DNA from: an uncultured Alphaproteobacteria bacterium | Lineage (GTDB): Bacteria > Pseudomonadota > Alphaproteobacteria > CAAHEQ01 > UBA3637 | NCBI GenBank assembly: GCA_944392145.1 | Contig: CALXVS010000004.1 | Coordinates: forward strand, 5,833-69,832 | Length of the DNA stretch: 64,000 nt | Reading direction: 5' to 3' | In this document: positions 41,750-63,396 of the stretch, in pieces | Layout of the letters: each line of letters begins with the position of its first letter | Position numbering within the stretch: position 1 is the stretch's first letter | Translations under genes and position numbers: made by a program | Notes under the pieces: generated by a model | What the model was told of the DNA's origin: nothing | The model's database searches: none | Seen by the model: only the letters and a program-made list of their open reading frames with translations

Positions 41750-42142
41750 ATGGAACAGAAAACAATCAGATGTGCAGTATACACTCGTAAATCAACAGAA
41801 GAAGGGTTAGACAAGGAGTTTAACACTTTAGAAGCTCAACGAGAGGCTGGTGAAAACTATATCAAAAGCCAAAAACAACAAGGTTGGATCTTGCTTCCAC
41901 AGCATTATGATGATGGTGGTTATAGCGGTGGCACATTAAAACGTCCTGCCCTTCAAAGTCTATTGTCAGATGTGCAAAATGGTAATGTTGATATGATTGT
42001 TGTTTATAAAATTGACCGCTTAACCCGTTCTTTGCTAGATTTTTCACAACTGATTAAAACGCTTGATGCACATAATTGTTCTTTTGTTTCTGTTACACAA
42101 AATTTTAACACTTGCGATTCCATGGGTAAGCCGCCATTGTGA
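41750..42142 (+). pseudogene. Large serine recombinase, N-terminal catalytic domain only (130 aa, truncated)
   Basis: 'CAVYTRKSTEE…GYSGGTLKRPALQSLL…DMIVVYKIDRLTRS' resolvase-domain signature. Ends after 130 aa where portal homology begins. Confidence 0.6.
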
Positions 42143-42792
42143 ATGCAATGATTGCCGCATTTATTGAAACGCCGATGGATAATGAAGGCTTAAACGAACT
42201 GTTCGGTGGTTCAAGCGACGAATACTTGAATGCCAAAAAAGATTGGCAGGTCAAGTTAGAGGGTGGATCGATTATTCCGATATTCCCCGGAGATAAGGTC
42301 GCCCCATTTACCCCGTCTCGCCCGAACTCGGCATATGGTGCTTTCGTTGAAAACTTGCTCCGACACATCGGAACCGGATTAAACATTCCGTATGAGTTGC
42401 TGTTAAAAGACTTCTCAAAGACCAATTATTCGTCCGCTCGTTCTGCTTTATTAGAGGCTTGGCGATATTTCAACGGCCACCGGCAATGGCTGTCCGATTA
42501 CTGGGCAACACCGGTTTATGAACTATGGCTTGAAGAAGCTGTCAATAAGGGACTGGTTGATGCTCCGGACTTTTATGAGAACCGCTACGCATATACAAGA
42601 TGTAAGTGGATCGGTCCGGGTCGTGGTTGGGTGGATCCTGTCAAAGAGGCACAAGCCTGCCAAATCCGAATGGAGATAGGACTTTCAACATTAGAGGCCG
42701 AATGTGCCGGTCAAGGCTTGGACTGGGAAGAAGTTTTAGAGCAAAGAGCAAGAGAAAAGGAACGTATGAAAAAACTTTTTAACGAGCGTTGA
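42139..42792 (+). pseudogene. Phage portal protein (lambda gpB-like) C-terminal fragment
   Basis: C-terminal '…WIGPGRGWVDPVKEAQA…' block typical of lambda-family portals. N-terminal ~300 aa absent. Confidence 0.5.
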
Positions 42793-43134
42793 TAGCGAGG
42801 AAAATTAGTTTTTCTGGTTCCTTTCGCCGGATTACCGGTAAAATGCTGATAATAAAACATGCGACAGGCAAACTGCCAAACTCGCCGAATTAGGTTTAAC
42901 TTTAGGAGATTTAACCCGAAAGGAGGAAAAAACGATACAAAATGATGATGAAATACAGACTATAGAATAAAATTTTTATATATTTTGTAATTTTTATTGA
43001 ATTATTTGGGAATATCTGGGAAATTTTCTATTTTGCAAAATAGCAAAAATGCAAAAAAATAAAATAGGACTTGCTTTTATGTTTGTTTTTGGCTATATTG
43101 GAGTCATATTCCATTTTAGCCAAAAGGATGTCTT

Positions 43135-44358
43135 ATGTATCAAAGAACTTTATCACGTCATCTTGACCGATTAACTAAAAATTTTCCAGTATTATTAATT
43201 ACCGGCCCTCGTCAGGTCGGTAAATCAACGTTATTAGAAACTTATATTTCTGATAAATATAATCGTGTTACATTGGACGATTTGAATGAACGAGCAAAGG
43301 CAATTAATGATCCTGCTTTATTTTTGCAGGAACATCAACCCCCCGTTTTAATCGATGAAGTACAATATGCACCGGAACTTTTTAGTTATATAAAAATATA
43401 TGTTGATCAAAACAGAGATAAAAAAGGATTGTTTTTATTGACCGGTTCACAAAAATTTCATCTTATGAAAGGAATTCAAGAAACTTTGGCAGGTCGAGTA
43501 GCAATACTTGATTTATTGGGGTTGTCCAATCAAGAAATAAACAATCATCCTGATACTGTTCCTTTCCTTCCAACGGATGATTTTATTGATGAACTGAAAA
43601 AACAAAAAAAATCTCAAAGCACATTGCAAACGGTTTATACAAATATTTTTAACGGTTCTTTCCCTGAACTGGTAAGCAGAAACGGTGAAGACAGAGATAT
43701 TTATTACAGTTCTTATGTGAAAACATATATAGACCGAGATGTAAAAGGTTCTTATAATATATCTGACGCTATCAGATTTAATAATTTTATAAAAGCAGTG
43801 GCTGCACGAACTGGTCAATTATTAAACATTGCAGATATTGCCAGAGATGTATCTATTGATAATAAAACGGCCCAATCTTGGTTAAATATTTTAGAAGCTT
43901 CCGGTTTGGTGTATTTATTACATCCTTACTACAATAATATCACTAATCGTATTATAAAAACACCAAAGATTTATTTTTTGGATACAGGGTTATGTGCATA
44001 TTTAACAGGTTGGGATGCTCCAAAATCTCTTGAAGCGGGTGCTATGAGTGGAGCGATACTGGAGACATACGTGTTATCTGAAATACTCAAATCATATTGG
44101 CATAATGCTAAAGAACCAAATATTTATTTTTACAGAGATAAAGATGCTAAAGAAATTGATTTTATCATAGAGGCGAATAATACAATTTATCCGATAGAGG
44201 TAAAGAAAACAATGATGCCTGATTTAAATGCTTATAAAAACTTTAATGTACTTGAAAAACTGCAAAAGCCAATAGCAAAAGGTGTTGTTTTATGTTTAAA
44301 ACAGGAAGTATCTTTTATTTCTAGAGAAATTGTTGCAATACCTATTGCATTTATTTAA
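43135..44358 (+). CDS. AAA+ ATPase with DUF4143-like C-terminal domain
   Basis: Walker A 'GPRQVGKST', Walker B 'VLIDEVQ'. Widespread orphan ATPase family. Confidence 0.6.
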   Translation: MYQRTLSRHLDRLTKNFPVLLITGPRQVGKSTLLETYISDKYNRVTLDDLNERAKAINDPALFLQEHQPPVLIDEVQYAPELFSYIKIYVDQNRDKKGLFLLTGSQKFHLMKGIQETLAGRVAILDLLGLSNQEINNHPDTVPFLPTDDFIDELKKQKKSQSTLQTVYTNIFNGSFPELVSRNGEDRDIYYSSYVKTYIDRDVKGSYNISDAIRFNNFIKAVAARTGQLLNIADIARDVSIDNKTAQSWLNILEASGLVYLLHPYYNNITNRIIKTPKIYFLDTGLCAYLTGWDAPKSLEAGAMSGAILETYVLSEILKSYWHNAKEPNIYFYRDKDAKEIDFIIEANNTIYPIEVKKTMMPDLNAYKNFNVLEKLQKPIAKGVVLCLKQEVSFISREIVAIPIAFI

Positions 44359-44492
44359 GTATCTATCAAACAAAACAAAGCCTCACTTCTCGTGGGGCTT
44401 TTTTGTTATCCAAAACACAAAAAGTAAAGGTTATCAATTTATCCTTTACTTTCTCAAAAAGAAAGTAAAGGTTTTCATTTAAGTGAAAGGAA

Positions 44493-45398
44493 ATGAGAAT
44501 GAAACTATTAAACAAGACCGTTTGGGCAATAACGCCAGAGATGTTGCAGACGATGATGACGATAGCGAGGCAGAACAACAAAAGCCCTGAAGCAGTCGCC
44601 AGTCAAATTGGTAAAGAGATGAAAAACACAAACGCCGTTTCTATCCGAGACGGCGTTGCTGTTATCAGGGTTGCCGGCCCATTGTTCAGGTATGCAAACC
44701 TGTTAACTCGCATTTGTGGTGCAACCTCTTACGAGCTTTTCGCTCAGGACTTTAATAAAGCCCTCAAAGACCCGACAGTTCAAGCCATTTTGCTTGATGT
44801 TGACAGTCCGGGTGGCGAAGTAAACGGCTGTTCGGAAGTTGCCGATATGATTTATAAGGCTCGTGGCACAAAGCCGATTGTCGCTTATGCATCCGGTTAC
44901 TGTTGCTCGGGTGCTTATTGGATCGCCTCAGCCTGTGACAAGATTTATGCAACCGATACGGCCGTCATTGGCTCAATCGGTGTCGTTTCCATTTTTGAAA
45001 AGGATGATGAAAACAAAACCATAGAGATTGTTTCATCGCAAAGTCCGAATAAACGACCCAATGTGGAAACCGAGGAAGGTAAAGCCAAAATTCAAGAACA
45101 CGTTGATGCGTTGGCTGATGTTTTTATCAATAAAGTTGCACTTAACAGGGATATCTCCCCGGAAGAAGTTATCGAAAACTTTGGTGGTGGAGATGTGTTT
45201 GTTGGGCAAAAAGCCGTCACTATCGGTCTGGCGGACGGCTTGTCCTCATTCGAGGAATTAGTGTCAGACCTTAACACAGGGACGTATTACCAGTTAATAG
45301 GCAAAAATGGCAAGAGTAAAAATTGTTTTAGAACAATGGATTTTTCACAAAGTGTAACCCTGGGAACATCAGGTGGGGCTCTGATTGGCTCGGATTAA
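44493..45398 (+). CDS. S49-family serine peptidase (phage prohead protease gpC / SppA-like)
   Basis: '…LLDVDSPGGEV…' and '…GYCCSGAYWIASACDKIYA…' S49 catalytic blocks. Confidence 0.65.
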   Translation: MRMKLLNKTVWAITPEMLQTMMTIARQNNKSPEAVASQIGKEMKNTNAVSIRDGVAVIRVAGPLFRYANLLTRICGATSYELFAQDFNKALKDPTVQAILLDVDSPGGEVNGCSEVADMIYKARGTKPIVAYASGYCCSGAYWIASACDKIYATDTAVIGSIGVVSIFEKDDENKTIEIVSSQSPNKRPNVETEEGKAKIQEHVDALADVFINKVALNRDISPEEVIENFGGGDVFVGQKAVTIGLADGLSSFEELVSDLNTGTYYQLIGKNGKSKNCFRTMDFSQSVTLGTSGGALIGSD

Positions 45399-45402
45399 AA
45401 CA

Positions 45403-45433
45403 GGACGGAAAAGAACAAGATCCGTCCTTTTGT
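45403..45433 (+). terminator. Hairpin AGGACGGA-(12 nt)-TCCGTCCT followed by TTTT
   Basis: Directly after the S49 peptidase stop. Confidence 0.4.
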
Positions 45434-45466
45434 GTATTTATATCGGCCGTTTATGGTATTCGTGCG

Positions 45467-45733
45467 TTGGCAAGATTACTGCAAAACTATCAACGGATCC
45501 ATGGCTTAGATACGCCAAGAAAGATAATCAGCCGATACGCTCCGCCGAGTGAAAACCAAACACAAGCCTACATCCAAAGTGTGGCCGCTCAGCTTGGTAT
45601 CACACCGGATGGTAAAGTTGATTTGACCGAAATCGGTACTTTAACTGTGTTTATCAAGGCCATAATTCGTCATGAAAACGGAATGCAACCTTATTCAAAC
45701 GAAACCATTCAGAAAGGAATTGCTTTGCTATGA
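45467..45733 (+). CDS. Phage-associated protein fragment (88 aa)
   Basis: 'RYAPPSENQTQAYIQSVAAQLGITPDGKVDL…' block. Precedes the lysis-like genes. Identity uncertain. Confidence 0.25.
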   Translation: MARLLQNYQRIHGLDTPRKIISRYAPPSENQTQAYIQSVAAQLGITPDGKVDLTEIGTLTVFIKAIIRHENGMQPYSNETIQKGIALL

Positions 45734-46998: not shown

Positions 46999-47069
46999 AG
47001 TTTATCGACATCCACCCGCCTCATCACAGGTGGGTAAATTGTTGATATGGGGCGTATGAAGGGTGGATC

Positions 47070-47510
47070 ATGGGCAAGATATGCTCGTTTTTTGGACACA
47101 GTCATTTATATGGACAATCAGAAAGTATTGTCCATCAATTAAGGCAAATCATTATCAATTTAATTGGAAAAGGCGTTGATACCTTTTACGTTGGCAATCA
47201 TGGTGAGTTTGATATTTTTGCCAGCCGGGTAGCCTATGATCTGAAAAGTTTATATCCTAACATCCAAATCATTGTTGTTTTATGTTATCCAAATGAGTTG
47301 CAATACTTAAAATGTGCCTTCACGGATTTTTTGATGCCTCCGGAAATAGAAGCGGTCCCCAAACGGGCTTGCATTGTAACTCGCAATCATTGGGTTGCTG
47401 ATAATTCTGACTACGTCGTCTGCTTTATCAAATACAAAATGGGTGGAGCCTATGCGGCTATCGAATACGCCCAAAAGCACCATAAACAAATTATAGAGGT
47501 AAGAGCATGA
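47070..47510 (+). CDS. YpsA/DUF1273-like (SLOG-family) Rossmann-fold protein
   Basis: 'FFGHSH…YVGNHGEFDIFASRVAYDLKSLYPNIQIIVVLCYPNE' resembles the DUF1273 pattern. Confidence 0.35.
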   Translation: MGKICSFFGHSHLYGQSESIVHQLRQIIINLIGKGVDTFYVGNHGEFDIFASRVAYDLKSLYPNIQIIVVLCYPNELQYLKCAFTDFLMPPEIEAVPKRACIVTRNHWVADNSDYVVCFIKYKMGGAYAAIEYAQKHHKQIIEVRA

Positions 47511-47609
47511 AGCAAGCAGGCATTCGTCACATTTTGGCCGAACGGTTGACTTCGCAAGGGAAGACAGATAAAATTGGCCCGGTAAAAACTCTTAAAGAAT
47601 GGTGTAAAA

Positions 47610-48203
47610 ATGCGTAAAAATCAAGTCAGTCGAAATCAAAGGATTCATATTCCCAAAAAAGTGGAAGATGCTTCGGTACAATTAATGTTACCGGTAGATG
47701 TTGCTTCTGTAAAGCAAGCATTTGCAACAGCTAATGACAAACGATTTAAATATGCTGATGCGCTGGATCAAGCAACCAAAGAAGATCCGGAATTGCATCA
47801 AATTTCAACAATTCCAAGCGATTCAAGCGAATTAATTGTTATAACGAAACTTAAAAAACTGGGGGCTTATATTCTAGCCGTGACGGTTAAATCGCCGGCC
47901 AAATTCAGACCTGTTTTTATCAATCGGATGCAAAATTACAGCTTGTCGGCTTTGGAAAATTTATTGAATGCTAATTTTATTCGGATGGATAGCCCCGAAC
48001 ATAAAGCCCAGCGAGAAAAGCATCAAACGGATGCACTCATTCAGTTAAAAATGGTGGCATATGTTGCAATGCTGTCGGAAAATGCAAAGTGTATTTTGAT
48101 GAGGCAGTATAAACAAATATCAATTCAGGTTGGTGAAATTATTAACCTGATTATGGCATGGAAAAAAAGTGATGATAAACAATGGCAAACAAAAAAGTTT
48201 TGA
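47610..48203 (+). CDS. avd: DGR accessory variability determinant (Avd)-like protein with N-terminal extension
   Basis: C-terminal '…DALIQLKMVAYVAMLSENAKCILMRQYKQISIQVGEIINLIMAWKK' aligns with the BPP-1 Avd helices ('DAGLAMLRFWLRFL…QVLIAEVGRILGSWIAR'). Ends 40 bp before TR. Confidence 0.55.
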   Translation: MRKNQVSRNQRIHIPKKVEDASVQLMLPVDVASVKQAFATANDKRFKYADALDQATKEDPELHQISTIPSDSSELIVITKLKKLGAYILAVTVKSPAKFRPVFINRMQNYSLSALENLLNANFIRMDSPEHKAQREKHQTDALIQLKMVAYVAMLSENAKCILMRQYKQISIQVGEIINLIMAWKKSDDKQWQTKKF

Positions 48204-48243
48204 ATCCGAAAGGATCAAAAAAGGGAAAGTTGATAATGCGTAT

Positions 48244-48362
48244 TGTGCCTCTTGGTCCGCGTCTTCAAATGAAAATGAAAACGTGCGTTGCGTCAACTAT
48301 AAGGACGATAAGAACTGGAATAACACGAATAAACGTAAAATCTCGGCGCGCCCCGATTTGCT
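48244..48362 (+). repeat. DGR template repeat (TR), 119 bp
   Basis: Matches 49868-49986 with ~21 mismatches, ~20 of them at TR adenines. 3' GC-rich 'TCTCGGCGCGCCCCG' IMH*-like end. The overlapping ORF 48169-48561 is regarded as spurious. Confidence 0.85.
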
Positions 48363-48610
48363 TTTAAGGAGAACAACAAAATGTGGTCGGCAAAGACACA
48401 GATCTCTGAAACAAGCCAGATATGTGGATTTTAGAAAAAATCCGCCCGTGCTCAAAGCAAAGGAAACTTTCTCTTTTCTAACCGCTGTCAGCTTAATGCT
48501 CAGTGCGGTGGAAGAAGTAAAAATGCAGAGTTTGCGTTTTATGGGGTATCACATATATTGACACATTTTGTTTTAATATATTATCGGGTACCCCTTTTTT
48601 ATCAGAAAAG

Positions 48611-49690
48611 ATGACGATGAAGATTGAAGAGATATTTACATTTGAAAACCTGGTTGCGGCTCATAAAGCGTGTCGGCTGAGCAAGCAACATAAACGGGGA
48701 ACAATCATGTTTGAAATTGAGTTGGGGCGTAATGTCACCAATCTGGTCAAACAATTGACGAATAAAACATATCGTTTAAGTCCTTACAGATCCTTTACCA
48801 TTTATGATCCGAAGAAAAGATTAATTGAGGCTTTGCCTTACAAAGACAGAGTGGTTTTAATGTGCTTTTGTCAGCATTCGGTAGCTCCCCGGCTAGAGAG
48901 ACACCTTATTTATGATAATGCCGCCTCACGCAAAGAAAAAGGGACGCATTTTGCGGTGGATCGATTGCATTCATTTATGCGAAAGCTGTACATCAAAAAC
49001 AAAACAAATCGGATTTATTTTTTGAAATGCGATATCAGGAAATATTTTCAAAGCATCAATCATGAGATTTTACTGGAACAGTTGGCCAAAGTCGGTTTTT
49101 CGGCTGATGAGATGTGGTTTTTAAGGATGATTATTGAATCACACGGCTCTATCGGATTGCCCTTGGGTAATCAGACCAGCCAATGGTTTGCCTTGCTGTA
49201 TTTGAACGGAATGGACCGGCTGATTAAAGAACGCCTGCGTATGCTTTACTATGTGCGCTATATGGATGATTTTGTTATCCTAAGCGAAGATAAATCTAAA
49301 TTACAGTTATGCAAACAACAGATTGATGAATATGTTAAAGGGCTGAAGCTCTCCTTAAATCAAAAGACACAAATCGGGCTGTTATCGGATGGTATAGATT
49401 TTTTGGGATTTAACCACAAATTATCGGCCACCGAAAAGATTATTAAATCTCTGCGCGGATCGGCCAAAAGCCGCCAAAGAAAATACCTGAAAGCTATCCG
49501 TCACTACTATTTGAATGATGTTCTTGATGATGAGTACATAGACGTCCGTTTAGCCTCATATCGCGGGCATTTAAAGGGCACTAAGAACTGGCTACATATC
49601 TGCAACCGCTTGACCTCCTTGAAACACGAGAAACGTCGTACAAAAAAATTGTTGCAGAACAATAAATTGTATGATATACTGGGAGTATAA
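48611..49690 (+). CDS. DGR reverse transcriptase
   Basis: 'IFTFENLVAAHKA', 'YRLSPYRSFTIYDPKKRLIEALPYKDRVV', 'LGNQTSQWFALLYL' (DGR-type SQ motif), 'YVRYMDDFVIL' (YxDD), 'GIDFLGF'. Alignable with Bordetella phage bRT. Confidence 0.9.
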   Translation: MTMKIEEIFTFENLVAAHKACRLSKQHKRGTIMFEIELGRNVTNLVKQLTNKTYRLSPYRSFTIYDPKKRLIEALPYKDRVVLMCFCQHSVAPRLERHLIYDNAASRKEKGTHFAVDRLHSFMRKLYIKNKTNRIYFLKCDIRKYFQSINHEILLEQLAKVGFSADEMWFLRMIIESHGSIGLPLGNQTSQWFALLYLNGMDRLIKERLRMLYYVRYMDDFVILSEDKSKLQLCKQQIDEYVKGLKLSLNQKTQIGLLSDGIDFLGFNHKLSATEKIIKSLRGSAKSRQRKYLKAIRHYYLNDVLDDEYIDVRLASYRGHLKGTKNWLHICNRLTSLKHEKRRTKKLLQNNKLYDILGV

Positions 49691-49709
49691 GCTAAATTAG
49701 GAGGCTCGT

Positions 49710-51659
49710 ATGGGCTTTACGTTTTTGAAGGAAGATCAGATATGGGGCGATGATGCCCTGGATGTAATGAAACGTTATGGTACGAAGGTTGCGCCAACGG
49801 ATCTGACAGTCATATTGGGTGGTTATATGACCGGTGGTGGTGATCGTACTTCTGAAGATGATCTAACTTGTGCCTCTTGGTCCGCGTCTTCGAATGATTA
49901 TGGAGACGTGCGTTGCGTCTACTGTTTGGGCGTCCAGATCTGGAATGACGCGCATAAGCGTACGATCTCGGCGCGCCCCGCTTTGCCTCCATCGGAGGCA
50001 TCTAAAATCAGCCCGAGCGAAGCGAGGGCTATCGCTGGAATCCGCGTAGCGGAATATGGGGAATACCCGCAAACGGTCGCCGATGAGCGCACCAGTGCAA
50101 AATTAGAAAAATTACATGATTCAAGATCTCTCCGTCCGACCGGAAAAAATTACACATTTGATTCAGTTGATTTAGGCGATTATGGCACGTCTTTTAAGGC
50201 CACATCCTATCAGGAATATGAAATGGATGGCAAAAGGTATATCCGTGTTCCTGGACGGCCTGCTGACGGCGATAGCAAGCTATCTACAGGTGAACAGGTA
50301 GAAGAAGGAAAGCCATACTGGGTTGAGGTCCAACCGATAGAATGGCTGATGGATAGAAGCGGCACAATGGTCGCCAAAAAATGCTTATTCGCCGGTATTC
50401 AATTTGATACGAAAGATTCATATGATGGCGGCTTTTCCAAAACGTCCATAAAGCACTATTTGGACACTTATTTTGCCAAAGAAATGGAGCCGACCGGACG
50501 TGTGGCCGCAAGAACGGTATCAAGAGACTATGAAGAAGAGCCGGAAAGAAAAGAACCCGTTAAAAAGAAAGAACCGACAGCCAGACAGAAGAAATACGGG
50601 ATCGAGGTATCTGATGAGCCTATGCCCGTCAAAGACCAAATAAACTTCTATATTCAAAACGGAATGAGCTTCATGCTCCATGGCCCGTCCGGTGTCGGTA
50701 AATCACAACGTGTGAAAGAAATTGATCCGGATTTGACCTCAATTACACTGTGTAACGGAATTTTGCCTGAAGATGTTATCGGTAAAACAATCTATCCAAA
50801 CGGCGTGGGAGCCGATGGGGCCTCCGGTGGTGTTTGGGTGCCGCCTAAGTGGTACACGGATTTGTGCAGAAAATGCGAAACAGAACCGGACAAACAGCAC
50901 GTCTTATTTATCGATGAAGTGACCAATGCGCGTGAAACAACACAAAGTTTGATCTATCACGTAGCGTTGGAAAAATCAATTGCCCAGGGCGTTGGCAAAC
51001 TGCCTAATAATGCTGTGGTCGTGTTGGCCGGTAACAGCAAGGAAGAATCAGGAGCCGCTTATAACATGCCGGCCCCGTTGTTCAGACGTTTAAGCCATAT
51101 TTACTTGGACTTGAATATTCAGGATTGGTTGGAATGGGGCTCGGAACACAGCAAGAGCCATCCGGAAGATCCGGATCGCTTAAACATCCATCCGTTAGTC
51201 GCCAGTTTTGTGGCAACCTACGGACGGCAAGTGTTCTATTCCGAGTATGATGAAGAAAACCCCGGTAAGTTTGCTCTTGACCCACGAAAATGGGAAAAGG
51301 TATCAGATAAAATCTATGCCAATAAGGGTGTGATGCGCCGTGAGATTTTGGAAGCTGATATCGGGCCTGAATTGGCGGCCAGTTTATTGTCATATGCTAA
51401 AAATCCGCCGCTATCTTTGGAAGAAGTGATTGAGGGCGAATATACCCGCGAGGATATTCCTACGGGACAGGATGCCCGTTTGGCGTTGGCGTTGAGTTTG
51501 CGTCATGCAACACCGAAACAAGTCGGAAAAGTACGTCAATTTGTTGAAACACAGTTAGGCGCAGAAAATCGTGCGATTTTTGACTCTGTTTGGGTGGGCA
51601 AGGATGATACACGCGCCATGCAGATCGCCACTCTACATAACTTAAAGGGAGGAAGATAA
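49710..51659 (+). CDS. DGR target protein: N-terminal variable region fused to a MoxR-like AAA+ ATPase (649 aa)
   Basis: Strong RBS AGGAGG. VR encodes aa ~53-92 ('CASWSASSNDYGDVRCVYCLGVQIWNDAHKRTISARP'). Walker A 'GPSGVGKS' and Walker B 'VLFIDEV' further downstream. Confidence 0.75.
   Translation: MGFTFLKEDQIWGDDALDVMKRYGTKVAPTDLTVILGGYMTGGGDRTSEDDLTCASWSASSNDYGDVRCVYCLGVQIWNDAHKRTISARPALPPSEASKISPSEARAIAGIRVAEYGEYPQTVADERTSAKLEKLHDSRSLRPTGKNYTFDSVDLGDYGTSFKATSYQEYEMDGKRYIRVPGRPADGDSKLSTGEQVEEGKPYWVEVQPIEWLMDRSGTMVAKKCLFAGIQFDTKDSYDGGFSKTSIKHYLDTYFAKEMEPTGRVAARTVSRDYEEEPERKEPVKKKEPTARQKKYGIEVSDEPMPVKDQINFYIQNGMSFMLHGPSGVGKSQRVKEIDPDLTSITLCNGILPEDVIGKTIYPNGVGADGASGGVWVPPKWYTDLCRKCETEPDKQHVLFIDEVTNARETTQSLIYHVALEKSIAQGVGKLPNNAVVVLAGNSKEESGAAYNMPAPLFRRLSHIYLDLNIQDWLEWGSEHSKSHPEDPDRLNIHPLVASFVATYGRQVFYSEYDEENPGKFALDPRKWEKVSDKIYANKGVMRREILEADIGPELAASLLSYAKNPPLSLEEVIEGEYTREDIPTGQDARLALALSLRHATPKQVGKVRQFVETQLGAENRAIFDSVWVGKDDTRAMQIATLHNLKGGR
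49868..49986 (+). repeat. DGR variable repeat (VR) with IMH at the 3' end
   Basis: 119-bp partner of TR. In frame in the target gene. GC-rich 'TCTCGGCGCGCCCCGC' terminus differs from TR by one base. Confidence 0.85.
49985..49999 (+). promoter_or_regulatory. GC-rich hairpin (GCCTCC-atc-GGAGGC) immediately 3' of the VR
   Basis: Equivalent position and shape to the hairpin/cruciform element that enhances DGR retrohoming in Bordetella phage. Confidence 0.5.
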
Positions 51660-51660
51660 A

Positions 51661-52131
51661 ATGTCATTAAAAGAAATGCTTGAAAAAAATCGGAAGAAAC
51701 GCAAGAATGGCTTAGTCATCCAACCTGATATAGGATGGGCCGGACCGAAACCCGCCCGAACAAAAGCCGAAAAGATTAATCAAATCAAAACGGAATTTAT
51801 TGATGATAGAGCTTTGTTGATTGTCGGAGCCAAAGCATCCGACTTTGCAGAATATCCGAAGATAGAGGCTGATATCTCAGTCCAAGACTTAATCAAGCAT
51901 ATTGAACAATTAGAATCTGTAAAACAGAGACTGAAAAAGAAGATGTTGCTTGTTATAACCGGACTGGATAAGATTTCGGCTGACGAACAGGCAAAATTCA
52001 TTCCTCTCTTGAAGGATAGGCAAATTATGGCAAGTAAATTGCCTGATGCAGTTCAAATTGTTATGCCTGTTGCTGATGCTGATGCAGTTTCTCATGCAAC
52101 AAAGTCACTCATTTTTGAATTGAAAGTATAA
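51661..52131 (+). CDS. Hypothetical protein (156 aa) between the AAA+ and VWA genes
   Basis: ATG 2 bp after the upstream stop. No motif recognised. Confidence 0.3.
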   Translation: MSLKEMLEKNRKKRKNGLVIQPDIGWAGPKPARTKAEKINQIKTEFIDDRALLIVGAKASDFAEYPKIEADISVQDLIKHIEQLESVKQRLKKKMLLVITGLDKISADEQAKFIPLLKDRQIMASKLPDAVQIVMPVADADAVSHATKSLIFELKV

Positions 52132-52133
52132 TA

Positions 52134-53972
52134 ATGCCTAATATGGTCACAGAGCAACAGGAAGAAATTCAATATATCAAAGAACAGGTTTTGGCCAAGT
52201 TCCCTTTGCTCGGCGTGACGATGAGACCCTTATCGGTTGTTCCTGATGATAGAATTGGAACAGCGGCCACAGACGGGCATCGCATTATCTATTCTCCAAA
52301 GTTTTTTAGCACTTTATCGGATGAACAGAAACAATTTGTCTTTGCGCATGAAGTGATGCATGTCGCTTTTAACCACATTTTGCGCAGTAAGGGCCGTAAT
52401 CAAAGGTTGTGGAATATCGCAACCGATTCTGTTATCAACCAAATTCTGAAAAATGAAAAATTGCCATTAACGGAAGGTGGTGTTGATATTGCAGAAGCTG
52501 TCAACCATTCGGCCGAAGAAATGTATGAAAAACTCTTGAAAAAGAAAGAACAGCGTGATCAGGAAAAGGGGCAAAATCAAGAGCAACAGCAACAATCACA
52601 ATCCGGTGGGACGGACCAGCCTCAGGATCAGGATGCACAAAATCAGCCTGAACAGGAACAACCTCAGGATCAAGACGGACAAAATCAATCCGGACAAGAC
52701 CAGCCTCAGGATCAAGACGGGCAAAAGGGACAAGAACAATCCGATCAACAATCAGACGGTTCGGAAAATCAAGATGAACAAAACAAAAATTCATCAGAAG
52801 GCTCGGAAGGATCCGAACAACAGAAAGATCAATCTCAAGATGGTGATTCAAACTCTGATCAAAACAGTTCTTCCGGTCAGGGAGACGAAAATCAATCTGA
52901 TTCAAATTCCGAACAATCAAGCGACAATCAACAAGGATCCTCTAAACCCCAAAAGGGTGGTCAACGTTCGCAATCCGGTTCTTCCTCTCAATCAGAAGAC
53001 ACCGACTGGGATGACAGCAATATCGATTGGGACAATGAAGATGAACAAGTAGGCCACGATACACACGATATTTGGAAAGAAGCGGTTGAAGAGGCAGAAC
53101 GTGAAGAACAACGGAAACAGGAACAAGCGAATAAGAAGAGTTTGTGGGATAGGCTGAAAGAAGCCATGGGGCAAAAAGAAGTTAAAGAGGATCAGCAAGG
53201 CGAACCTCAAGAAAAAGAAGCTCCTATACCGCAAGATGAAAACATGGATGCGTATGAAAAAGGCTTCTTGGCAGAAAATCAAGAAAAACGTCATGAGATG
53301 GCCGAACAGGTGCGCGAGCAATTAAACAGGATAAAAGGAAGCCTCCGTCAATCAAATGATCATACCACCCTCGGGGATGTTGGGGAAACTCAAACGCCGG
53401 TGGTTGATTGGAAAAAAATGCTTAAAAAATCTTTTGATGAAGAGCGTGATCGTTGGTCCTATCGTCGTTCCGGTTCTGAAAACGACTATATGGCTCGGGT
53501 GGAAGAATTGGAAGATGAAGGCCGTCCGGATACGGAAGTCATGTTGGATGTGAGCGGTTCTGTAAATATCCGCTTGTTACGTGAATTTTTAAGACAACTT
53601 AAACCGCTCCTCAAATCCTCTAAATTAAAGGTCGGTTGCTTTGATGAGTTTGTTTATGACTTTAAGGAAATAAAGACTAAAGAGGATATTGACCATTTCC
53701 AAATTACGGCAAAATCTCAATGGACTGAAAACTGGGATGCGGCTGTCCGGGCATTTTCTAAGAAAAAAGAAGTGAATAAAATTATTTTTACAGACGGATA
53801 TCCATGCCCAGGAACAATGCCTAAAGAAGATTTAAAGGGTAAGAATGTTATTTGGATAGTTTACGGAAATAAAGATTTTAATCCATGCTGTGGTAAAGTC
53901 ATCCAGGTTTCTGAACGACAACTTCAGTCGTATATTCAGACGGCCGCTCCACTTTCTAGAGGTGGAAGATAA
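52134..53972 (+). CDS. Putative metallopeptidase (HExxH) - acidic low-complexity linker - VWA (MIDAS) domain protein; MoxR partner
   Basis: 'HEVMHVAFNH' zinc-binding motif. Long Q/D/E/S-rich linker. C-terminal 'DVSGSV…' MIDAS-type VWA. Confidence 0.6.
   Translation: MPNMVTEQQEEIQYIKEQVLAKFPLLGVTMRPLSVVPDDRIGTAATDGHRIIYSPKFFSTLSDEQKQFVFAHEVMHVAFNHILRSKGRNQRLWNIATDSVINQILKNEKLPLTEGGVDIAEAVNHSAEEMYEKLLKKKEQRDQEKGQNQEQQQQSQSGGTDQPQDQDAQNQPEQEQPQDQDGQNQSGQDQPQDQDGQKGQEQSDQQSDGSENQDEQNKNSSEGSEGSEQQKDQSQDGDSNSDQNSSSGQGDENQSDSNSEQSSDNQQGSSKPQKGGQRSQSGSSSQSEDTDWDDSNIDWDNEDEQVGHDTHDIWKEAVEEAEREEQRKQEQANKKSLWDRLKEAMGQKEVKEDQQGEPQEKEAPIPQDENMDAYEKGFLAENQEKRHEMAEQVREQLNRIKGSLRQSNDHTTLGDVGETQTPVVDWKKMLKKSFDEERDRWSYRRSGSENDYMARVEELEDEGRPDTEVMLDVSGSVNIRLLREFLRQLKPLLKSSKLKVGCFDEFVYDFKEIKTKEDIDHFQITAKSQWTENWDAAVRAFSKKKEVNKIIFTDGYPCPGTMPKEDLKGKNVIWIVYGNKDFNPCCGKVIQVSERQLQSYIQTAAPLSRGGR
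52605..52745 (+). repeat. Imperfect tandem repeats (CAGCCTCAGGATCARGAYGG.CAAAA…) encoding (Q-P-Q-D-Q-D-G-Q-N-Q)n
   Basis: Three visible copies within the linker of 52134-53972. Confidence 0.45.
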
Positions 53973-54014
53973 GATACAACACCATTCTTAGACGATGAAT
54001 GGGAAAGTGTTAAA

Positions 54015-56046
54015 TTAATATAAATTAGCCTCAAAAATTTGATAAAGGTCAAATTCTATACCGTCAACGCCTCTGATGAGGTCTATTTCGTCTTCGGCGG
54101 CGACATCAATTCGGGCCTGATCCAAAAACAAGCCTTCTTCTTTTTTGCGGAGTTGTTTTTCCATTTCGTTGATTTGCTTTTGAATTTTAAGTTCTTCTAA
54201 GCGGTCTTTGGCACTACCGATACTTTCTTTAATTTTTGATGTTTCTTGGCGTAAGGATTCAAGAGTTTGTTCTAATACGGCTTTTTGACGAGATGAACGC
54301 ATTTTGATAATATCAATATCCGTATTAAAAGCACCTTCTTGTTGTTTGATATAGTTGTTTTTCAACTCATCTTCTAAGAATACTGGCAACCTGTCAGAAA
54401 ACGAACTGTTTGCTAGCCAATAAGAGCGTTCTCTATCCTTATTTTCAACAGATTTAATTGGCTGTGATAAAATTTTGACACATTCTTCTTGGGTTAAAAT
54501 CTTGTCATCTTCTGTTTTGCCGGTTAAAACATCATAATTTTTAAGAAACTTTCCCTTTCGGCGTAATTCAACATTATACATACTGATTTGGCAAGATTCA
54601 ATGCTTGTTTCAAGCTGTATTTCGCCCTCTGTAGCACACTCAATTTCACTAAAAATTCCCTTAGCTAAAATAGAAGTTAAGGTAATTCTTCCGCTTGCCG
54701 GTTTAAAATCTTTGGTCATGCCATACTGACGTTTTCCCGTATAAGGTGTGTTTCTTGTCCCGGTCCAATAATAGAACATATGTGGCAATTCACAATCATC
54801 CGGTAAAGTTAATGTTTGATTGATATCATCAATAATATATTGAGGATGATGCTTTTCAAAATAAAACTTCACAACCTCCCATAAGTCCCGATTGAGAAAT
54901 TCTGCCTGTTCTTGAATATATTGAGGTGAGACCTGTATTTTTTCGGCCACATCCTTTGTAAATGTCGTAAATAAAACACTTTCGGCATCCGAAACAACTT
55001 GTGCGTTGGCATCTTTATTTATCTCTAAATTCTGTGCAAAATCCCGTTGAATATCGGGCAAGGTTCGGCGTTTTTGCAAAACTGCTTCCAATGTTTCATC
55101 AAAGTTGCCCACCATATCATCCGACATCCCGAAAATACCCTGAAATTGTAAAGTTCGTTTGTTAATCAATTCCAAAATACGCACATCAGACATATTTTCC
55201 TGACTGAGCAAATTGATAACCAACACATCGGATTGTTGCCCTTGACGGTGGCAACGACAAATTCGTTGTTCCATCTCAACGGCATTATAAAGTAAATCAT
55301 AGTTCGCGACAACCGGACAGTATTCTATGTCTAAACCTTTGGCAGTTGCATCGTTTGTGATGAGAATTTGAATATTTTTATCTTCTCTAAAAATCCTCAA
55401 AGCATTATCATCTGTGTGTTTTATAACTGAATAATGTCCCTTCAATAACTTTGATAAAACGGATATCCTGCTCCTGATTGATGATATTTTCAGCCTTTTT
55501 AAAAGCGTCAATGTTGATAATCATAATTTCAATGTTGCTGGAAGTCGCAAAAGCCCGAACATCTGACAGTTTTGCCGAATTATAGATAAAATATCTGTAA
55601 GGCACGCTGTCATATTGATTTTTAAAGTGTTCTTCGGTGATTTGGAAGGATTTATTCACACCTTCACGAATAGCAATACTTGGCACAACAATGATAAACT
55701 TTGTAAAGCCGTAACGTTTATTGAGTTCCAAAATTGTTTTTGTGTAAACATAGGTTTTACCGGTTCCGGTTTCCATTTCAATAGAAATAGGCAAGGCTTT
55801 GCCGGATTCAATATCTGTTTGAGGCAAAGATTGACCTTTTTGAATATTTTTCAAATTAGAAACAAGCGTTTCCTTATCAAGCAGAAGTTTGTTACCAAAA
55901 CCAAAATCATTTTGCAATAAACTAAATTGAGCCGAATTATCAACGATAGAAAAAGTTGTTCCGGCTTTTTCTTGTCCTTTGAATAAATCAGCAACAGCAT
56001 TAACTGCCTTTTCTTGAAATTCCTGTTTCTTAAATTTTAGTTTCAT
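54015..56046 (-). pseudogene. Type III restriction enzyme Res subunit (SF2 helicase-nuclease), frameshifted/internally deleted
   Basis: N-part ORF 55408-56046 carries Walker A 'METGTGKTYVY'. C-part ORF 54015-55511 begins with helicase motif 'ILITNDATAKGLDI' and 'QRICRCHRQG'. The two ORFs overlap out of frame at 55408-55511. Combined length is short for Res. Confidence 0.55.
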
Positions 56047-57004: not shown

Positions 57005-57703
57005 CTACAACAACTCAATCTCAATGCCTTTGTCTTTACTGATATAATAGGCGTTGGAAAGGGCGACATCGTCCTTAAAGGCTTCTTCGGCGGCGACGAT
57101 TTTGGCTGGTGTCAAATCGCACATAGCCGTAATATCTTCCGGTGTAATACCTCCGTTAGAACCATCCAAGCATACGAGAACAAGTCCGTCTTCGCCAATG
57201 GAATAGACTTTACGGCCGTTAATGTCAATCGGGGCTACCTTGTATGTAACGGGAATACCCAATTTTAACATCACTTCATACACCACGTCCAATTCCGAAC
57301 GGTCAAATTTCAAGCTTTTAATCATAGTATCAAAGCGTTCTTTCAAGGCATTTGCATCGTCAGTCGGTGTATCATCCCATTTGACGAGGTTGGAGGTATC
57401 CAACTTCAATGTTTTGAAACCGGTATCAACTTCGGGATGTTCGGCTTTAATCTTAGCTCCGGCACGGAGGATACGTTCTTTGCCGATTTCGCAAATGTTT
57501 TTGTATCCGGCTTTAAAGGCTTCTGATTTCTCGTCTGTTACTTCCGGCAGTTGTACCATAATGAATTGACGTTTTCCGCCATCTTCAGCATTTAATTGCA
57601 TAACGGCATGAGCCGTAGTTGCAGAGCCAGAGAAAAAGTCGAGGATGATATCGTCATCTTTATCTGTTGCTATTTGTAGCATTTCTTTTATATATGGTAT
57701 TGG
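57005..57703 (-). pseudogene. Type III Mod (N6-adenine methyltransferase) C-terminal fragment
   Basis: '…[36 protein letters not shown]…' (motif I region of beta-class MTases). The ORF-track N-terminus (57707-57898) is antisense read-through of the groEL fragment. Confidence 0.6.
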
Positions 57704-57704
57704 T

Positions 57705-58247
57705 TTAGCTAAGTTATCCGGCGGCGTAGCCGTTATTAAAGTCGGTGGAGCAACTGAAGTTGAAGTCAAAGAAAAGAAAGATCGTATTGATGATGCTTTA
57801 CATGCAACACGTGCTGCTGTTAAAGAAGGTGTTGTTGTTGGTGGTGGTGTTGCTTTATTGTATGCAACACGTGCATTAGAAGACTTAAAACCAGCCAATG
57901 ATGACCAACGTGTTGGTGTTGATATTATTCGTCGAGCAATTCAGGCTCCATTGCGTCAAATCGTTTCAAACGCGGGTGAGGATGGCGCTGTTGTCGTTGG
58001 AAAACTGTTGGAAAAATATGATACCAATATGGGTTATGATGCTCAAAAGGATGAGTATACAAATATGTTTGACGCAGGTATTGTTGACCCGACTAAAGTG
58101 GTTAGAACAGCTTTAGAAGGCGCATCTTCTGTCGCTAGCTTGCTAATTACAACAGAAGCTATGGTGGGTGATAAGCCGGAAGATGAATGTTCTTGTGGTA
58201 AAAATGCTGCCGCAGGTGGCATGCCAGGTATGGGTGGTATGTACTAA
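57705..58247 (+). pseudogene. groEL: groEL 3' fragment (C-terminal ~180 codons of chaperonin GroEL)
   Basis: '[52 protein letters not shown]…' to the GGM-rich tail. Homology starts abruptly at ~57705 with no N-terminal part. Confidence 0.7.
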
Positions 58248-61297: not shown

Positions 61298-62095
61298 CTA
61301 TTTTTCAACAGATTTTTTTGAAATTAATGTAGAATAAATAGTAGCTTGTTGGTTGTCTTTTTTATCATAAGTAGAACAAGAGTTTTCTTTTAATAGTTGT
61401 AAAATCTCAGGATCTTGAGGCATATATTGGCCTGTTTTTAAATCTAATCTATTTTGGTAAAGATGCATTGCTTGTTCAGAAGAACGAGCACCTCCATTGA
61501 TTAAGGCTTTTATTGTATGTTTATCTCCATAACGAGCCGCATGCATTAAAAGAGAAGTGCCGTTAGTGTCCGTTTCATTTACATCAGCTCCTTTTTTTAT
61601 AAGAGTTTCAAGAATTGGCGTTAACTCAGGTTTACCATGTGCGGCAATAATAGCTAAGTACAAAGGGGATTGGTTCATATGATTTTTTTTATTAGCTTGT
61701 GCGCCAACATTCAACAATGTTTCAACAAGCTGTGATTTTCCATTCAACACTGCTGCTGTCAGGAGTGTTTGTCCCCACCCATTCTTAATGTCATTTAGTC
61801 CGGGAGCTGTTAGATGTTCTTTTTCAATATGGTGTATAGGAATATTTTTCACGCCGTGATCTGTAAGTATTTGATATTGCCATTGATCTAAAGGAAATGT
61901 CGGTTGATTGAAGAAATCAATTCCATCAAAAGATTGAACTAGTTTTGTTTTTTCGGATTGTTTTTCCGCCGCCTGAGCTGTTTGTGTTTCTAAAGAAAGG
62001 GCCGCAGCTCCAATTAGAATCGTTTTTTTTAATACATCTTTTAAGGACATATTTCCCTCCTTCTCATAGTATAACACAAATAAAAGTATTTTCAA
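61298..62095 (-). CDS. Secreted ankyrin-repeat protein (265 aa)
   Basis: Signal peptide (…AAALSLETQTAQA). ANK units ('GQTLLTAAVLNGKSQLVETLLNVGAQAN', 'GTSLLMHAARYGDKHTIKALINGGA'). Confidence 0.6.
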   Translation of the reverse strand: MKILLFVLYYEKEGNMSLKDVLKKTILIGAAALSLETQTAQAAEKQSEKTKLVQSFDGIDFFNQPTFPLDQWQYQILTDHGVKNIPIHHIEKEHLTAPGLNDIKNGWGQTLLTAAVLNGKSQLVETLLNVGAQANKKNHMNQSPLYLAIIAAHGKPELTPILETLIKKGADVNETDTNGTSLLMHAARYGDKHTIKALINGGARSSEQAMHLYQNRLDLKTGQYMPQDPEILQLLKENSCSTYDKKDNQQATIYSTLISKKSVEK

Positions 62096-62259: not shown

Positions 62260-63396
62260 TTAAAAAATATGTTGTTCTTTAGGTGTATCAAAGACAATAC
62301 TTTCAAATAAATTTTTTATTTCATCAGCCGCATTAGCAGCATTTGATACATTATCCCATAAAGTTTCAGGTATTTTTCCTTTGTTTTCATATATAAAGAG
62401 CTTACGATATATGTTATCACCATGTATAATCAATTTATTATCTTCATCCATTTTGGTTAGATTTTCTTTACTAAACAACCACAATCTTTCAGAAAAATAC
62501 TGACCTGATTTACTTGTAAAATCGTACTTAACACCTCCTTGCGTACCTCTTGCCCAGCAGGCTAACATTCTATAATCGCCACGAGGATCATTGTCTGGAT
62601 TTTTATAGGCTTTTTTAGTTTCGTCATCTAATTCAAGAAAATTTGTATTAAAATAATCTTTTGATTTTGAATAGAGAACTAAATATTCGTGAGCTTTACT
62701 AAACCATCTTGCTGAATTATCGCGTCCTCTTTTTCTTTTCCAAACTATTTGTGCTACAAAATTTTCTTCTCCGAAAACCTCATCACAAATACGACGAAGA
62801 TTCGTCACCTCATTATCATCAATGCTGATAAAAATCACACCATCATCACGAAGTAAGTTAGAGGCTAAACGCAAGCGAGGATACATCATATTCAACCAGT
62901 TGGTATGATATCTGCCCATTGTTTCGGGATTTAATTTTGTTGTTTGACTTGTAATTTCTTTATATTTTGCCATTGGGTCCTTAAAATCATCTTCATAAAC
63001 AAAATCATTACCGGTATTATACGGTGGATCAATGTAAATCATCTTAACTTTGCGATAATAGGCTGTTTGTAAAAGTTTCAAAACTTCCAAATTGTCGCCT
63101 TCAATATACAGATTATTGGTGTTTTCAAAATCAACGCTTTCCTCCGGACAAGGACGGAGTGTTCCGGTTGAACGCTTACCTGCAATCCGATAGCATTCAG
63201 ATTTGCCTTTCCATTCAAATTTATACTTTTCAAAGTCGTTGTCTATATATTCGCCACATAAAGACAAAAGTTTATCAATATCCAAATTACCCTCGGTAAA
63301 ACACTCAGGAAAAACCGTTTTCAACTTTTCCTTGTTTACGCCCGTCACATCAAAGCTTTTGCCGTCCATTTTTTGAATTTGAATATCGTCTGCCAT
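62260..63396 (-). pseudogene. Type III Mod methyltransferase N-terminal fragment (378 aa)
   Basis: 'IYIDPPYNTGNDFVYEDDF' (motif IV DPPY) … ends '…IVFDTPKEQHIF*' where the KP…LI region and motif I should follow. Confidence 0.65.

Follow-up and report, generated by a model that had tools for sequence, protein, structure and literature searches.

The 64,000-nt stretch analysed here (hereafter the window; contig CALXVS010000004.1, with all coordinates counted from the first base of the stretch) carries a functional, chromosomally borne diversity-generating retroelement (DGR) of an uncultured gut alphaproteobacterium, laid out in the order avd, template repeat (TR), structured spacer RNA, reverse transcriptase (RT) and target gene. 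As a DGR it is of an ordinary, well-known kind, and such elements have been catalogued by the thousands. Very probably, though, this genuine DGR comes with a particular target architecture, in which the head that holds the variable repeat (VR) sits N-terminally on a MoxR-type AAA+ ATPase, whereas DGRs normally target the tip of a tail fibre or the C-terminus of a surface protein. A first-pass annotation of the window had proposed a complete DGR in the order avd-TR-RT-target; that order is confirmed, and each of the components it named is present, and independent tests bear out the RT, the Avd and the TR/VR pair. It was silent on the N-terminal position of the VR and on the nature of the target, which is a MoxR-type AAA+ ATPase and not a receptor-binding or surface protein.

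A repeat search combined with base-by-base comparison recovered a single 119-nt direct repeat pair, offset by 1625 nt and 82% identical, whose likeness breaks off sharply at both flanks: the TR at 48243–48361 (+), which holds 37 adenines, and the VR at 49868–49986 (+). The copies differ at 21 positions, 20 of them adenines in the TR (A>G 9, A>T 7, A>C 4), and the sole non-adenine mismatch is a T>C at 48309. Changes thus fall on 20/37 TR adenines vs. 1/82 other bases (Fisher p = 1.1e-11). The first-pass annotation had the length of the pair, its ~21 differences and their division into ~20 adenine-specific changes and one T>C right, while its coordinates for the upstream copy (48244–48362) were one base too high. 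No second VR-like copy with ≤ 25 non-adenine mismatches was found on either strand of the 64-kb window.

The VR codes for target residues 53–92, and its copy in the window has no stop codon. Read in the VR frame, the TR contains nine AAY codons (Y being a pyrimidine), which is the classical DGR design, plus two AAG and two AAA codons that are prone to become stops. The accessible peptide repertoire is in theory ~1e18–1e19, spread over a diversified segment of ~20 surface codons (target residues 62–85), and with full randomisation ~20% of the variants would contain a stop. A 130-aa open reading frame (ORF) at 48169–48561 (+), listed as a gene in public metagenome annotations, consists only of the TR, read in the frame of the VR, and its continuation into the structured spacer RNA; it is almost certainly not a real gene.

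TR and VR have a common 3′ end, TCTCGGCGCGCCCCG-[A/C]-TTTGC, with an A in the TR and a C in the VR, which bears out the earlier reading of a GC-rich 3′ element differing by one base between the copies. This discriminator, located at position 48356 in the TR, is invariant within the motif CCCG[A/C]TTTGC in the 13 related loci examined. At the sequence level, the GC-rich TCTCGGCGCGCCCCG and the fixed A/C discriminator fit an initiation of mutagenic homing feature (IMH in the VR, IMH* in the TR), which would be expected to act in homing. A GC-rich hairpin had also been proposed 3′ of the VR, and it is present (TGCCTCC-ATC-GGAGGCA, 49984–50000 (+); 7 bp with a 3-nt loop; folded as DNA, −8.5 kcal/mol with z = −2.4). 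It takes in the final 3 bases of the VR and lies within the conserved coding sequence for LPPSEA. It is kept in close relatives only and is absent or in another register in distant DGR loci, hence it is not a family feature, and we rejected a conserved post-VR cruciform on these grounds.

The RT (359 aa, intact; 48611–49690 (+)) lies between TR and VR, and its translation contains LGNQTSQ and YVRYMDD, i.e., the DGR-type SQ and YVRYMDD motifs expected from the first reading of the sequence. It matches RVT_1 (E = 5e-21) and phrog_1423 (E = 4.8e-96), and its top match in the PDB is the RT (bRT) of the Bordetella phage DGR (8ub7_A, E = 1.4e-41 over residues 5–322), vs. 3e-15 for group II intron RTs and 5e-7 for retron-type RTs in the same search. 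Against NCBIfam models of group II RTs (105 bits, cut-off 300), of retrons and of defence-associated RTs (DRTs), it stays far under the cut-offs. By these matches, the RT is assigned to the DGR clade, apart from group II, retron and DRT enzymes.

The Avd accessory protein (197 aa; 47610–48203 (+)) ends 39 nt 5′ of the TR, in line with the ~40 bp first estimated for an Avd-like gene. Residues 72–190 correspond to the Avd four-helix-bundle region, and the protein matches the profile for the Avd protein of DGRs in PHROGs (phrog_3206, E = 6.7e-11), as well as PF22296 bAvd (E = 1e-5, profile positions 1–106 of 107, 26 bits vs. a curated cut-off of 40) and NF033474 DivGenRetAVD (E = 4.6e-5, positions 1–104 of 104, 24 bits vs. 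a curated cut-off of 80). Since the last two profiles are covered in full, yet below their cut-offs, we count the protein as a divergent Avd member. Homologues with 46–57% identity are found upstream of the TR in 10 distant loci, and a PDB sequence search with Avd returned nothing useful. The remaining residues (1–71; 47610–47820) form an N-terminal extension of ~70 residues that has no database match; an Avd length of 197–201 aa is kept in distant loci such as L086 and L123 (related loci, described below, are given L numbers, and homologous proteins P numbers).

Between TR and RT lies a spacer of ~250 nt (48362–48610 (+)) whose RNA is under purifying selection for structure. Across an alignment of 10 loci, its mean column identity is 72%, vs. 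52–64% for the flanking proteins, and RNAalifold recovers eight helices with 63 pairs, 27 of which are changed on both sides. Alignment cells at these pairs are paired in 95.3% of cases, vs. 40–55% when the 3′ partners are slid by 1–3 columns, and none of 500 shuffles equalled the alignment in percentage paired, in compensatory pairs or in covariation score. The helices include 48381–48401, 48414–48452, 48424–48445, 48474–48515 and 48520–48540, and the spacer ends, immediately 5′ of the RT start, in a long covarying hairpin (48543–48594) followed by a U-run. A search of 47500–50200 against Rfam at E ≤ 1 returned no match.

Structure also extends to both sides of the TR. Directly 3′ of the avd stop, and 5′ of the TR, the minimum free energy (MFE) fold contains a GNRA stem-loop (AUCC-GAAA-GGAU, 48204–48215 (+)) whose stem covaries in related loci (AACC-GAAA-GGUU, AGCC-GCAA-GGCU, GAGCC-GAAA-GGCUC). 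A purine-rich strand located 10–17 nt upstream of the TR (48220–48232 (+)) is predicted to pair with spacer positions 48464–48476 and thereby to bracket the TR: 11–13 of the 13 positions pair in the same relative place in 11 loci, in agreement with the single-sequence MFE fold, and compensatory changes occur between loci (e.g., GGGAAAGUU/AACUUUCUC vs. GGCAAAGCUU/AAGCUUUGUC). The energies of duplexes between the TR-upstream region and the spacer are no different from those of composition-matched shuffles, a control that does not discriminate here because both strands are of low complexity; we therefore judged the bracketing duplex by positional consistency and compensatory changes in place of energies, and take the evidence for it as moderate. 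Finally, the IMH*-like 3′ end of the TR (CC-GA-UUUGCUUU, 48353–48364 (+)) has a predicted partner at spacer positions 48454–48463 (AAAGCAAAGG), with which it forms helix 1 of the consensus structure, i.e., 10 pairs that are paired in 100% of cells in 10 loci, including one compensatory pair, AAAGCAAAGG itself being invariant.

The RNA of the Bordetella phage DGR, as seen by cryo-electron microscopy, contains a template:primer duplex (TR117-129:Sp47-56) and a “cPRT Stop” duplex (bioRxiv 10.1101/2023.10.23.563531). The helix between TR 3′ end and spacer resembles the former, and is by this analogy a candidate template:primer duplex for cis-priming, while the TR-bracketing duplex resembles the latter. 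The GNRA stem-loop is a third element with a parallel in the phage RNA. If priming proceeds as in the Bordetella phage, the complementary DNA (cDNA) would start 5′ of position 48353; the A/C discriminator at 48356 would then never be transferred, because it lies 3′ of the predicted start. Analogy and covariation together suggest the following course: a transcript comprising the 3′ end of avd, the TR and the spacer would fold into the conserved RNA, from which an RT-Avd complex would reverse-transcribe the TR, starting at the cis-primed TR:spacer duplex. Misincorporation opposite adenines, to which the mismatch spectrum points, would produce a mutagenised cDNA that replaces the VR, with the GC-rich IMH and its fixed discriminator likely giving directionality to the exchange.

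The evidence for activity of this DGR consists of comparisons between strains, not within a population. VR heterogeneity, whose absence from population data the first-pass annotation had taken, together with an inactivating lesion in the RT, to speak against a DGR, is pronounced in the closest clade (92–97% overall identity), in which 14–17 of the 31 residues 61–91 differ from the window, and two of the proteins (P0001 and P0129) differ from that of the window at just 5 of the other 618 residues. Most amino-acid differences between strains are accounted for by their VRs. The TR, on the other side, is identical or one base different in relatives whose VRs differ at 15–25 adenine sites. Among 38 relatives (80–97% identity), the columns with the highest entropy are 62–66, 71–73, 75–77, 79–83 and 85, all of which correspond to TR-adenine codons. 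A second set of positions is also highly variable in the 80–97% relatives (2–3.2 bits), namely residues 39–45 (49824–49844), 156, 159, 185, 187, 199, 236 and 237; these lie outside the VR and have no counterpart in the TR. They could line the binding surface to which the VR contributes, and owe their variability to diversifying selection of the ordinary kind.

The VR is not always open. In 8 of the ~16 DGR-bearing relatives (L010, L015, L017, L020, L023, L026, L032 and L045), the consensus VR of the metagenome-assembled genome (MAG) has in-frame stops or differs in length from the TR by 1–2 nt, most of these VRs being located at ~8160–8280 of the locus. Most of the stops trace to the stop-prone TR codons (AAA/AAG to TAA/TAG, or TAA to TGA), and the TRs of L015 and L017 already carry TAA at a stop-prone codon. 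Such VRs may be real off-alleles, i.e., a DGR-driven phase variation, or else assembly chimeras of mixed VR populations.

The target gene (49710–51659 (+)), preceded by a strong Shine-Dalgarno sequence (AGGAGG), codes for a 649-aa protein composed of a lectin-like domain (residues 1–95), a beta-rich subdomain (100–260), a linker (264–286) and a MoxR-type AAA+ ATPase (~300–649). A full-length AlphaFold2 model based on 85 homologues has a predicted local distance difference test (pLDDT) score of 84, with the linker disordered, and a model of the N-module (residues 1–262) reaches a pLDDT of 96.4 and a predicted template modelling (pTM) score of 0.93. According to this model, the N-module is a C-type-lectin-like plus beta module, whose compact lectin-like fold has the VR in its last strands. 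This placement is that of canonical DGR targets, from which the protein differs in that its lectin-like domain is N-terminal. The beta-rich subdomain that follows spans ~160 residues and includes a conserved EYGEYPQT motif. Pfam searches at E ≤ 10 with the N-module (split into 1–100 and 101–262) and five of its homologues returned noise only, a search of viral folds in BFVD with the N-module gave none at E ≤ 0.001, and a PDB sequence search with the target gave nothing useful. The module is likewise unlike the lectin-like domains of Treponema denticola TvpA, the C-terminal domain of Legionella Lcl and the N-terminal domain of the T. ramosa IgA-peptidase, both in lacking a Pfam match even at that permissive threshold and in that it runs into the 160-residue EYGEYPQT subdomain and is N-terminal in its proteins.

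The 18 best Foldseek matches of the C-terminal half (E = 3e-9 to 7e-8) are CbbQ and NorQ, the latter also in complexes with the VWA protein NorD. The target also matches the ATPase family phrog_1297 (E = 4.8e-37), and Pfam AAA_3 and AAA_5 below cut-off, and both its Walker A (G328/G330/K331 in GPSGVGKS) and Walker B residues (D402/E403 in FIDE) are invariant in 85 homologues. These models and matches identify the C-terminal half as a MoxR-clade AAA+ ATPase with intact Walker motifs. The sequence, inspected by eye, contains no obvious signal peptide or transmembrane segment, and the target is thus probably cytoplasmic. With the VR at residues 53–92 of 649, the protein departs from the typical C-terminal position. 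In surveys of DGRs, VRs are almost always C-terminal and NTPase domains, if any, lie upstream of the VR (PMC5758913; Roux et al.); N-terminal VRs were found for just a handful among 372 DGRs (Wu et al., PMC5758913).

The ATPase gene is the first of a three-gene module, and is followed by a 156-aa protein (51661–52131 (+)) and a 612-aa VWA-metallopeptidase partner (52134–53972 (+)). The 156-aa protein has no match in Pfam, PHROGs, PADLOC or NCBIfam; its homologues hold the same position in most related loci, whether or not a DGR is present. The 612-aa partner starts with a DUF2201_N domain, a putative zinc metallopeptidase with the motif HEVMH, continues with an insert of low complexity and ends in a VWA-like domain with a metal ion-dependent adhesion site (MIDAS) motif (DVSGS), as indicated by matches to PF13203 (E = 3.2e-26), PF09967 (E = 7e-7) and phrog_1314 (E = 1.6e-49), the motifs being read from the translation. 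The insert (52550–53300) is ~190 residues long, rich in Q/D/E/S, and includes three 42-nt tandem repeats at 52613–52738; homologues of the partner elsewhere are 476–539 aa long, and apparently lack most of it.

Searches with the target recovered 594 homologues. A survey of one genome per species gave 79 loci, mostly from MAGs of uncultured gut Alphaproteobacteria and Clostridia of humans and ruminants. The order ATPase-156 aa-VWA is kept in most of these, and many, mostly from Clostridia, have an ATPase without lectin-like head and without DGR. In 14 further distinct loci, the target is immediately preceded by homologues of Avd and RT, and 13 of the 14, from MAGs of gut Alphaproteobacteria, have an adenine-biased TR/VR pair as well, the VR being located ~160 nt inside the gene for the target. 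RT and Avd of the more distant DGR loci are just 46–64% identical to those of the window. One more locus (L045) has its TR and RT ~8 kb upstream of the VR.

When residues 1–105 were searched against 1.8 billion representative proteins, 268 relatives were found, and nearly all have the module at their N-terminus. Many are stand-alone proteins of 265–333 aa made of the full 1–260 module (among proteins P0144–P0230), and some are fused to further domains, such as ankyrin repeats at the C-terminus of P0145 and MORN repeats at the N-terminus of P0149, or have a different C-terminal domain. At two metagenome loci (L121, 5706–6488, and L123, 6001–7314), avd, RT and an adenine-biased TR/VR pair flank a head-bearing target without ATPase. 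The head is thus linked to DGRs even in the absence of the ATPase, which suggests that the conserved partnership is that of DGR and head, and that the ATPase is one of several outputs. Conversely, one ATPase homologue (P0073) has ankyrin repeats in place of the lectin-like head, and the window itself encodes ankyrin-repeat proteins (32527–33789 (+) and 61298–62095 (−)), a hint that one and the same ATPase may receive protein-binding heads of different types.

The closest precedents for this combination are the DGR-diversified VMAP/MoxR-vWA ternary conflict systems of cyanobacteria and Chromatiales (Kaur et al. 2020, PMC7159879; Dore et al. 2024, PMC10907252). Like these, the locus brings together a DGR, a MoxR-type AAA+ ATPase, a vWA protein and a third component, includes a peptidase domain, and diversifies a cytoplasmic binding domain of lectin fold (FGS in the known systems) that has been proposed as an antigen sensor. 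In the known systems, however, the variable domain is C-terminal on the vWA protein or on a separate target, every other domain being placed N-terminal of it (PMC7159879), whereas here it is N-terminal on the ATPase, and the hosts here are apparently unicellular gut Alphaproteobacteria as opposed to multicellular bacteria. With the libraries used, which hold no VMAP-specific model, we recognised neither a VMAP protein nor a caspase, trypsin, TIR or effector-associated adaptor domain. The locus is, as the family is defined, not a member of the VMAP ternary systems, and by analogy plausibly works like one. The literature we searched contains the link between DGRs and MoxR-vWA systems and describes no N-terminal VR on a MoxR ATPase; relative to it, a diversified lectin-like domain placed N-terminally and fused to the MoxR ATPase itself, a vWA partner with a DUF2201_N metallopeptidase and hosts among gut Alphaproteobacteria are new.

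Compared with the prototype, i.e., the DGR of Bordetella phage BPP-1 (mtd-avd-TR-brt), the element shares an RT of the same clade, Avd, adenine-specific transfer from TR to VR, a GC-rich, IMH-like 3′ element in which one base tells TR from VR, structured RNA on both sides of the TR and a VR within a C-type-lectin-like fold. It differs in gene order (avd-TR-RT-target), in its cellular genome and in having a target other than a tail fibre: BPP-1 has its lectin-like domain C-terminally on a receptor-binding protein, and the one here is N-terminal on a 649-aa AAA+ ATPase that is probably cytoplasmic. The 70-aa N-terminal extension of Avd, the ~250-nt spacer with its long hairpin and U-run, and the four stop-prone TR codons further distinguish it from the prototype.

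Phage tail fibres aside, the function of cellular DGR targets is largely unknown. For the present locus, the hypervariable head could serve to recognise a changing ligand inside the cell, for which a phage or mobile-element protein is the most plausible candidate, and its binding could be coupled to ATPase-driven remodelling or to activation of the VWA-metallopeptidase partner. A function as conflict sensor, analogous to that of the cyanobacterial MoxR-vWA systems diversified by DGRs, is a reasonable possibility to which we would give slightly less than an even chance. Indirect support for it comes from the defence genes near the locus (listed below), from the published link of DGRs to MoxR-vWA conflict systems, and from the occurrence of the head on other outputs and, still tied to a DGR, without the ATPase. 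It is tempting to go further and to picture the head as a portable, anticipatory antigen-recognition module on an AAA+ motor, with the DGR re-programming which intracellular protein, probably of a phage or mobile element, the ATPase-VWA-metallopeptidase machine takes hold of or responds to, in what would amount to a repertoire-based immune sensor of unicellular gut bacteria; this is offered as a tentative proposal, which we hold to be rather doubtful in its full form. Should it be true, the stop-prone codons encoded by the TR would add an on/off switch to an immune sensor. DGRs are, to our knowledge, the only prokaryotic makers of protein repertoires on the scale of antibodies, and the locus, which defines a family conserved in human and ruminant gut Alphaproteobacteria, would extend the idea of diversified intracellular sensors beyond multicellular cyanobacteria and Chromatiales. 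It would offer a compact, experimentally tractable three-gene case for DGRs that diversify intracellular sensors of invaders, and its well-conserved DGR RNA can be compared with the single one characterised structurally.

Several observations weigh against reading the locus as an active DGR that serves a defence-related sensor. The Avd matches fall under the curated cut-offs of both Pfam and NCBIfam. The exact VR allele of the window (the exact 649-aa target) recurs on 9 metagenome contigs from several samples, apparently of one cohort, so that diversification is either not rapid relative to the spread of strains, or regulated. PADLOC-DB 2.0 matches none of the three proteins of the ATPase-156 aa-VWA module, and the RT with generic RT models only. 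Finally, at two loci (L085 and L087) the three-gene module is surrounded by housekeeping genes and no DGR lies closer than 10 kb, which makes a non-defence cellular role possible.

These last two points, together with NorQ and CbbQ being maturation factors and the best structural relatives of the ATPase, speak for a real DGR acting on a housekeeping MoxR-VWA chaperone pair, engaged in maturation or cofactor insertion as NorQ/NorD and CbbQ/CbbO are, with the head merely tuning the choice of substrate or adaptor and playing no part in conflicts with phages or mobile elements. MoxR ATPases with VWA partners are established to remodel specific protein substrates in those two systems, and the likeness extends to the adjacent VWA partner with a MIDAS motif. 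The NorQ and CbbQ ATPases are, however, ~250–270 aa long, have no N-terminal recognition module, and mature a fixed enzyme substrate without a DGR. A housekeeping substrate would not need ~1e18 variants of a binding site. The same head is moreover borne by proteins with unrelated ankyrin, MORN or other domains, and is DGR-linked without the ATPase, and the partner has a metallopeptidase domain rather than a known cofactor-delivery domain. Defence genes also recur beside the locus: a PDC-S01 candidate gene (43135–44358) and type III restriction-modification remnants in the window, a UvrD-family helicase next to an AAA_15/AAA_21/SMC_N ATPase in L086, which we read as a Gabija-like pair, and a type III restriction-modification system in L087. 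On balance we consider the chaperone explanation unlikely, while giving it more weight than any of those that follow.

If the DGR were instead decaying, the TR/VR pair would be a fossil and the VR now fixed. The VR allele shared by 9 contigs, the non-adenine mismatch at 48309 and the neighbourhood of the locus, with its prophage remnants and its type III restriction gene in two pieces, would all suit such a state. Avd, RT, TR, VR and the target ORF are nonetheless all intact, relatives whose TR is the same or one base different have different VRs, and the VRs hold most of the amino-acid differences between strains, next to a spacer RNA whose structure is under purifying selection; an inactive element is thus improbable.

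We see even less room for a phage-borne, tropism-switching DGR whose target would be a virion or receptor-binding protein of a prophage. The portal fragment, S49 head protease and lysozyme-like fragment located 2–7 kb upstream count in its favour, as do the matches of the ATPase and VWA proteins to PHROG families. Yet the target is an AAA+ ATPase without obvious signal peptide rather than a structural protein, and the prophage remnants are fragmentary and absent from the distant DGR-bearing loci. In addition, no match to GenBank phages was found by DNA similarity of 47000–54000, IMG/VR yielded 2 weak relatives of the ATPase core and none with the N-module, and records of cultured phages and plasmids matched the ATPase core alone (residues ~307–600, 25–30% identity). 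Judged by these comparisons, the family is cellular, not viral, and the NorQ/CbbQ fold matches and the phage, plasmid and IMG/VR searches led us to reject a prophage tail fibre as the target. An ordinary duplication that diverged by chance or through a general mutational bias, with no retroelement involved, has nothing specific in its favour beyond the T>C mismatch, which shows that ordinary mutation also occurs, and is refuted to near certainty by the mismatch spectrum (20/21 differences at adenines of one copy, p = 1e-11), by the same asymmetry in 14 further distinct genome loci and by the RT and Avd that adjoin the copies.

Among the minor features of the window, a promoter-like site upstream of avd (TTGACT-17-TAAAAT, 47546–47574 (+)) is the best consensus match of the region (10/12) and is weak evidence of a promoter; a consensus promoter/terminator scan of the region returned a number of sites not above that expected from shuffled sequence. 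The degraded prophage remnants (41750–45733 (+)) comprise a serine resolvase abutting a portal C-terminal fragment, the S49 head-maturation protease and the lysozyme-like fragment of 88 aa, with the PDC-S01 gene (43135–44358) inserted between them. Downstream of the three-gene module, the type III restriction gene (54015–56046 (−)) is split into two overlapping ORFs, one holding the helicase C part and the other that of ResIII, and has probably become a pseudogene through a frameshift; genes for two DNA methylases are found close by (57005–57898 (−) and 62260–63396 (−)). Elsewhere in the window, a 1078-aa ORF (17025–20261 (−)) joins an LptF/LptG permease (residues 8–348) to LptD_N and LptD domains (401–1013), and represents either an unusual fusion of inner- and outer-membrane lipopolysaccharide transport proteins or two genes without an intervening stop.

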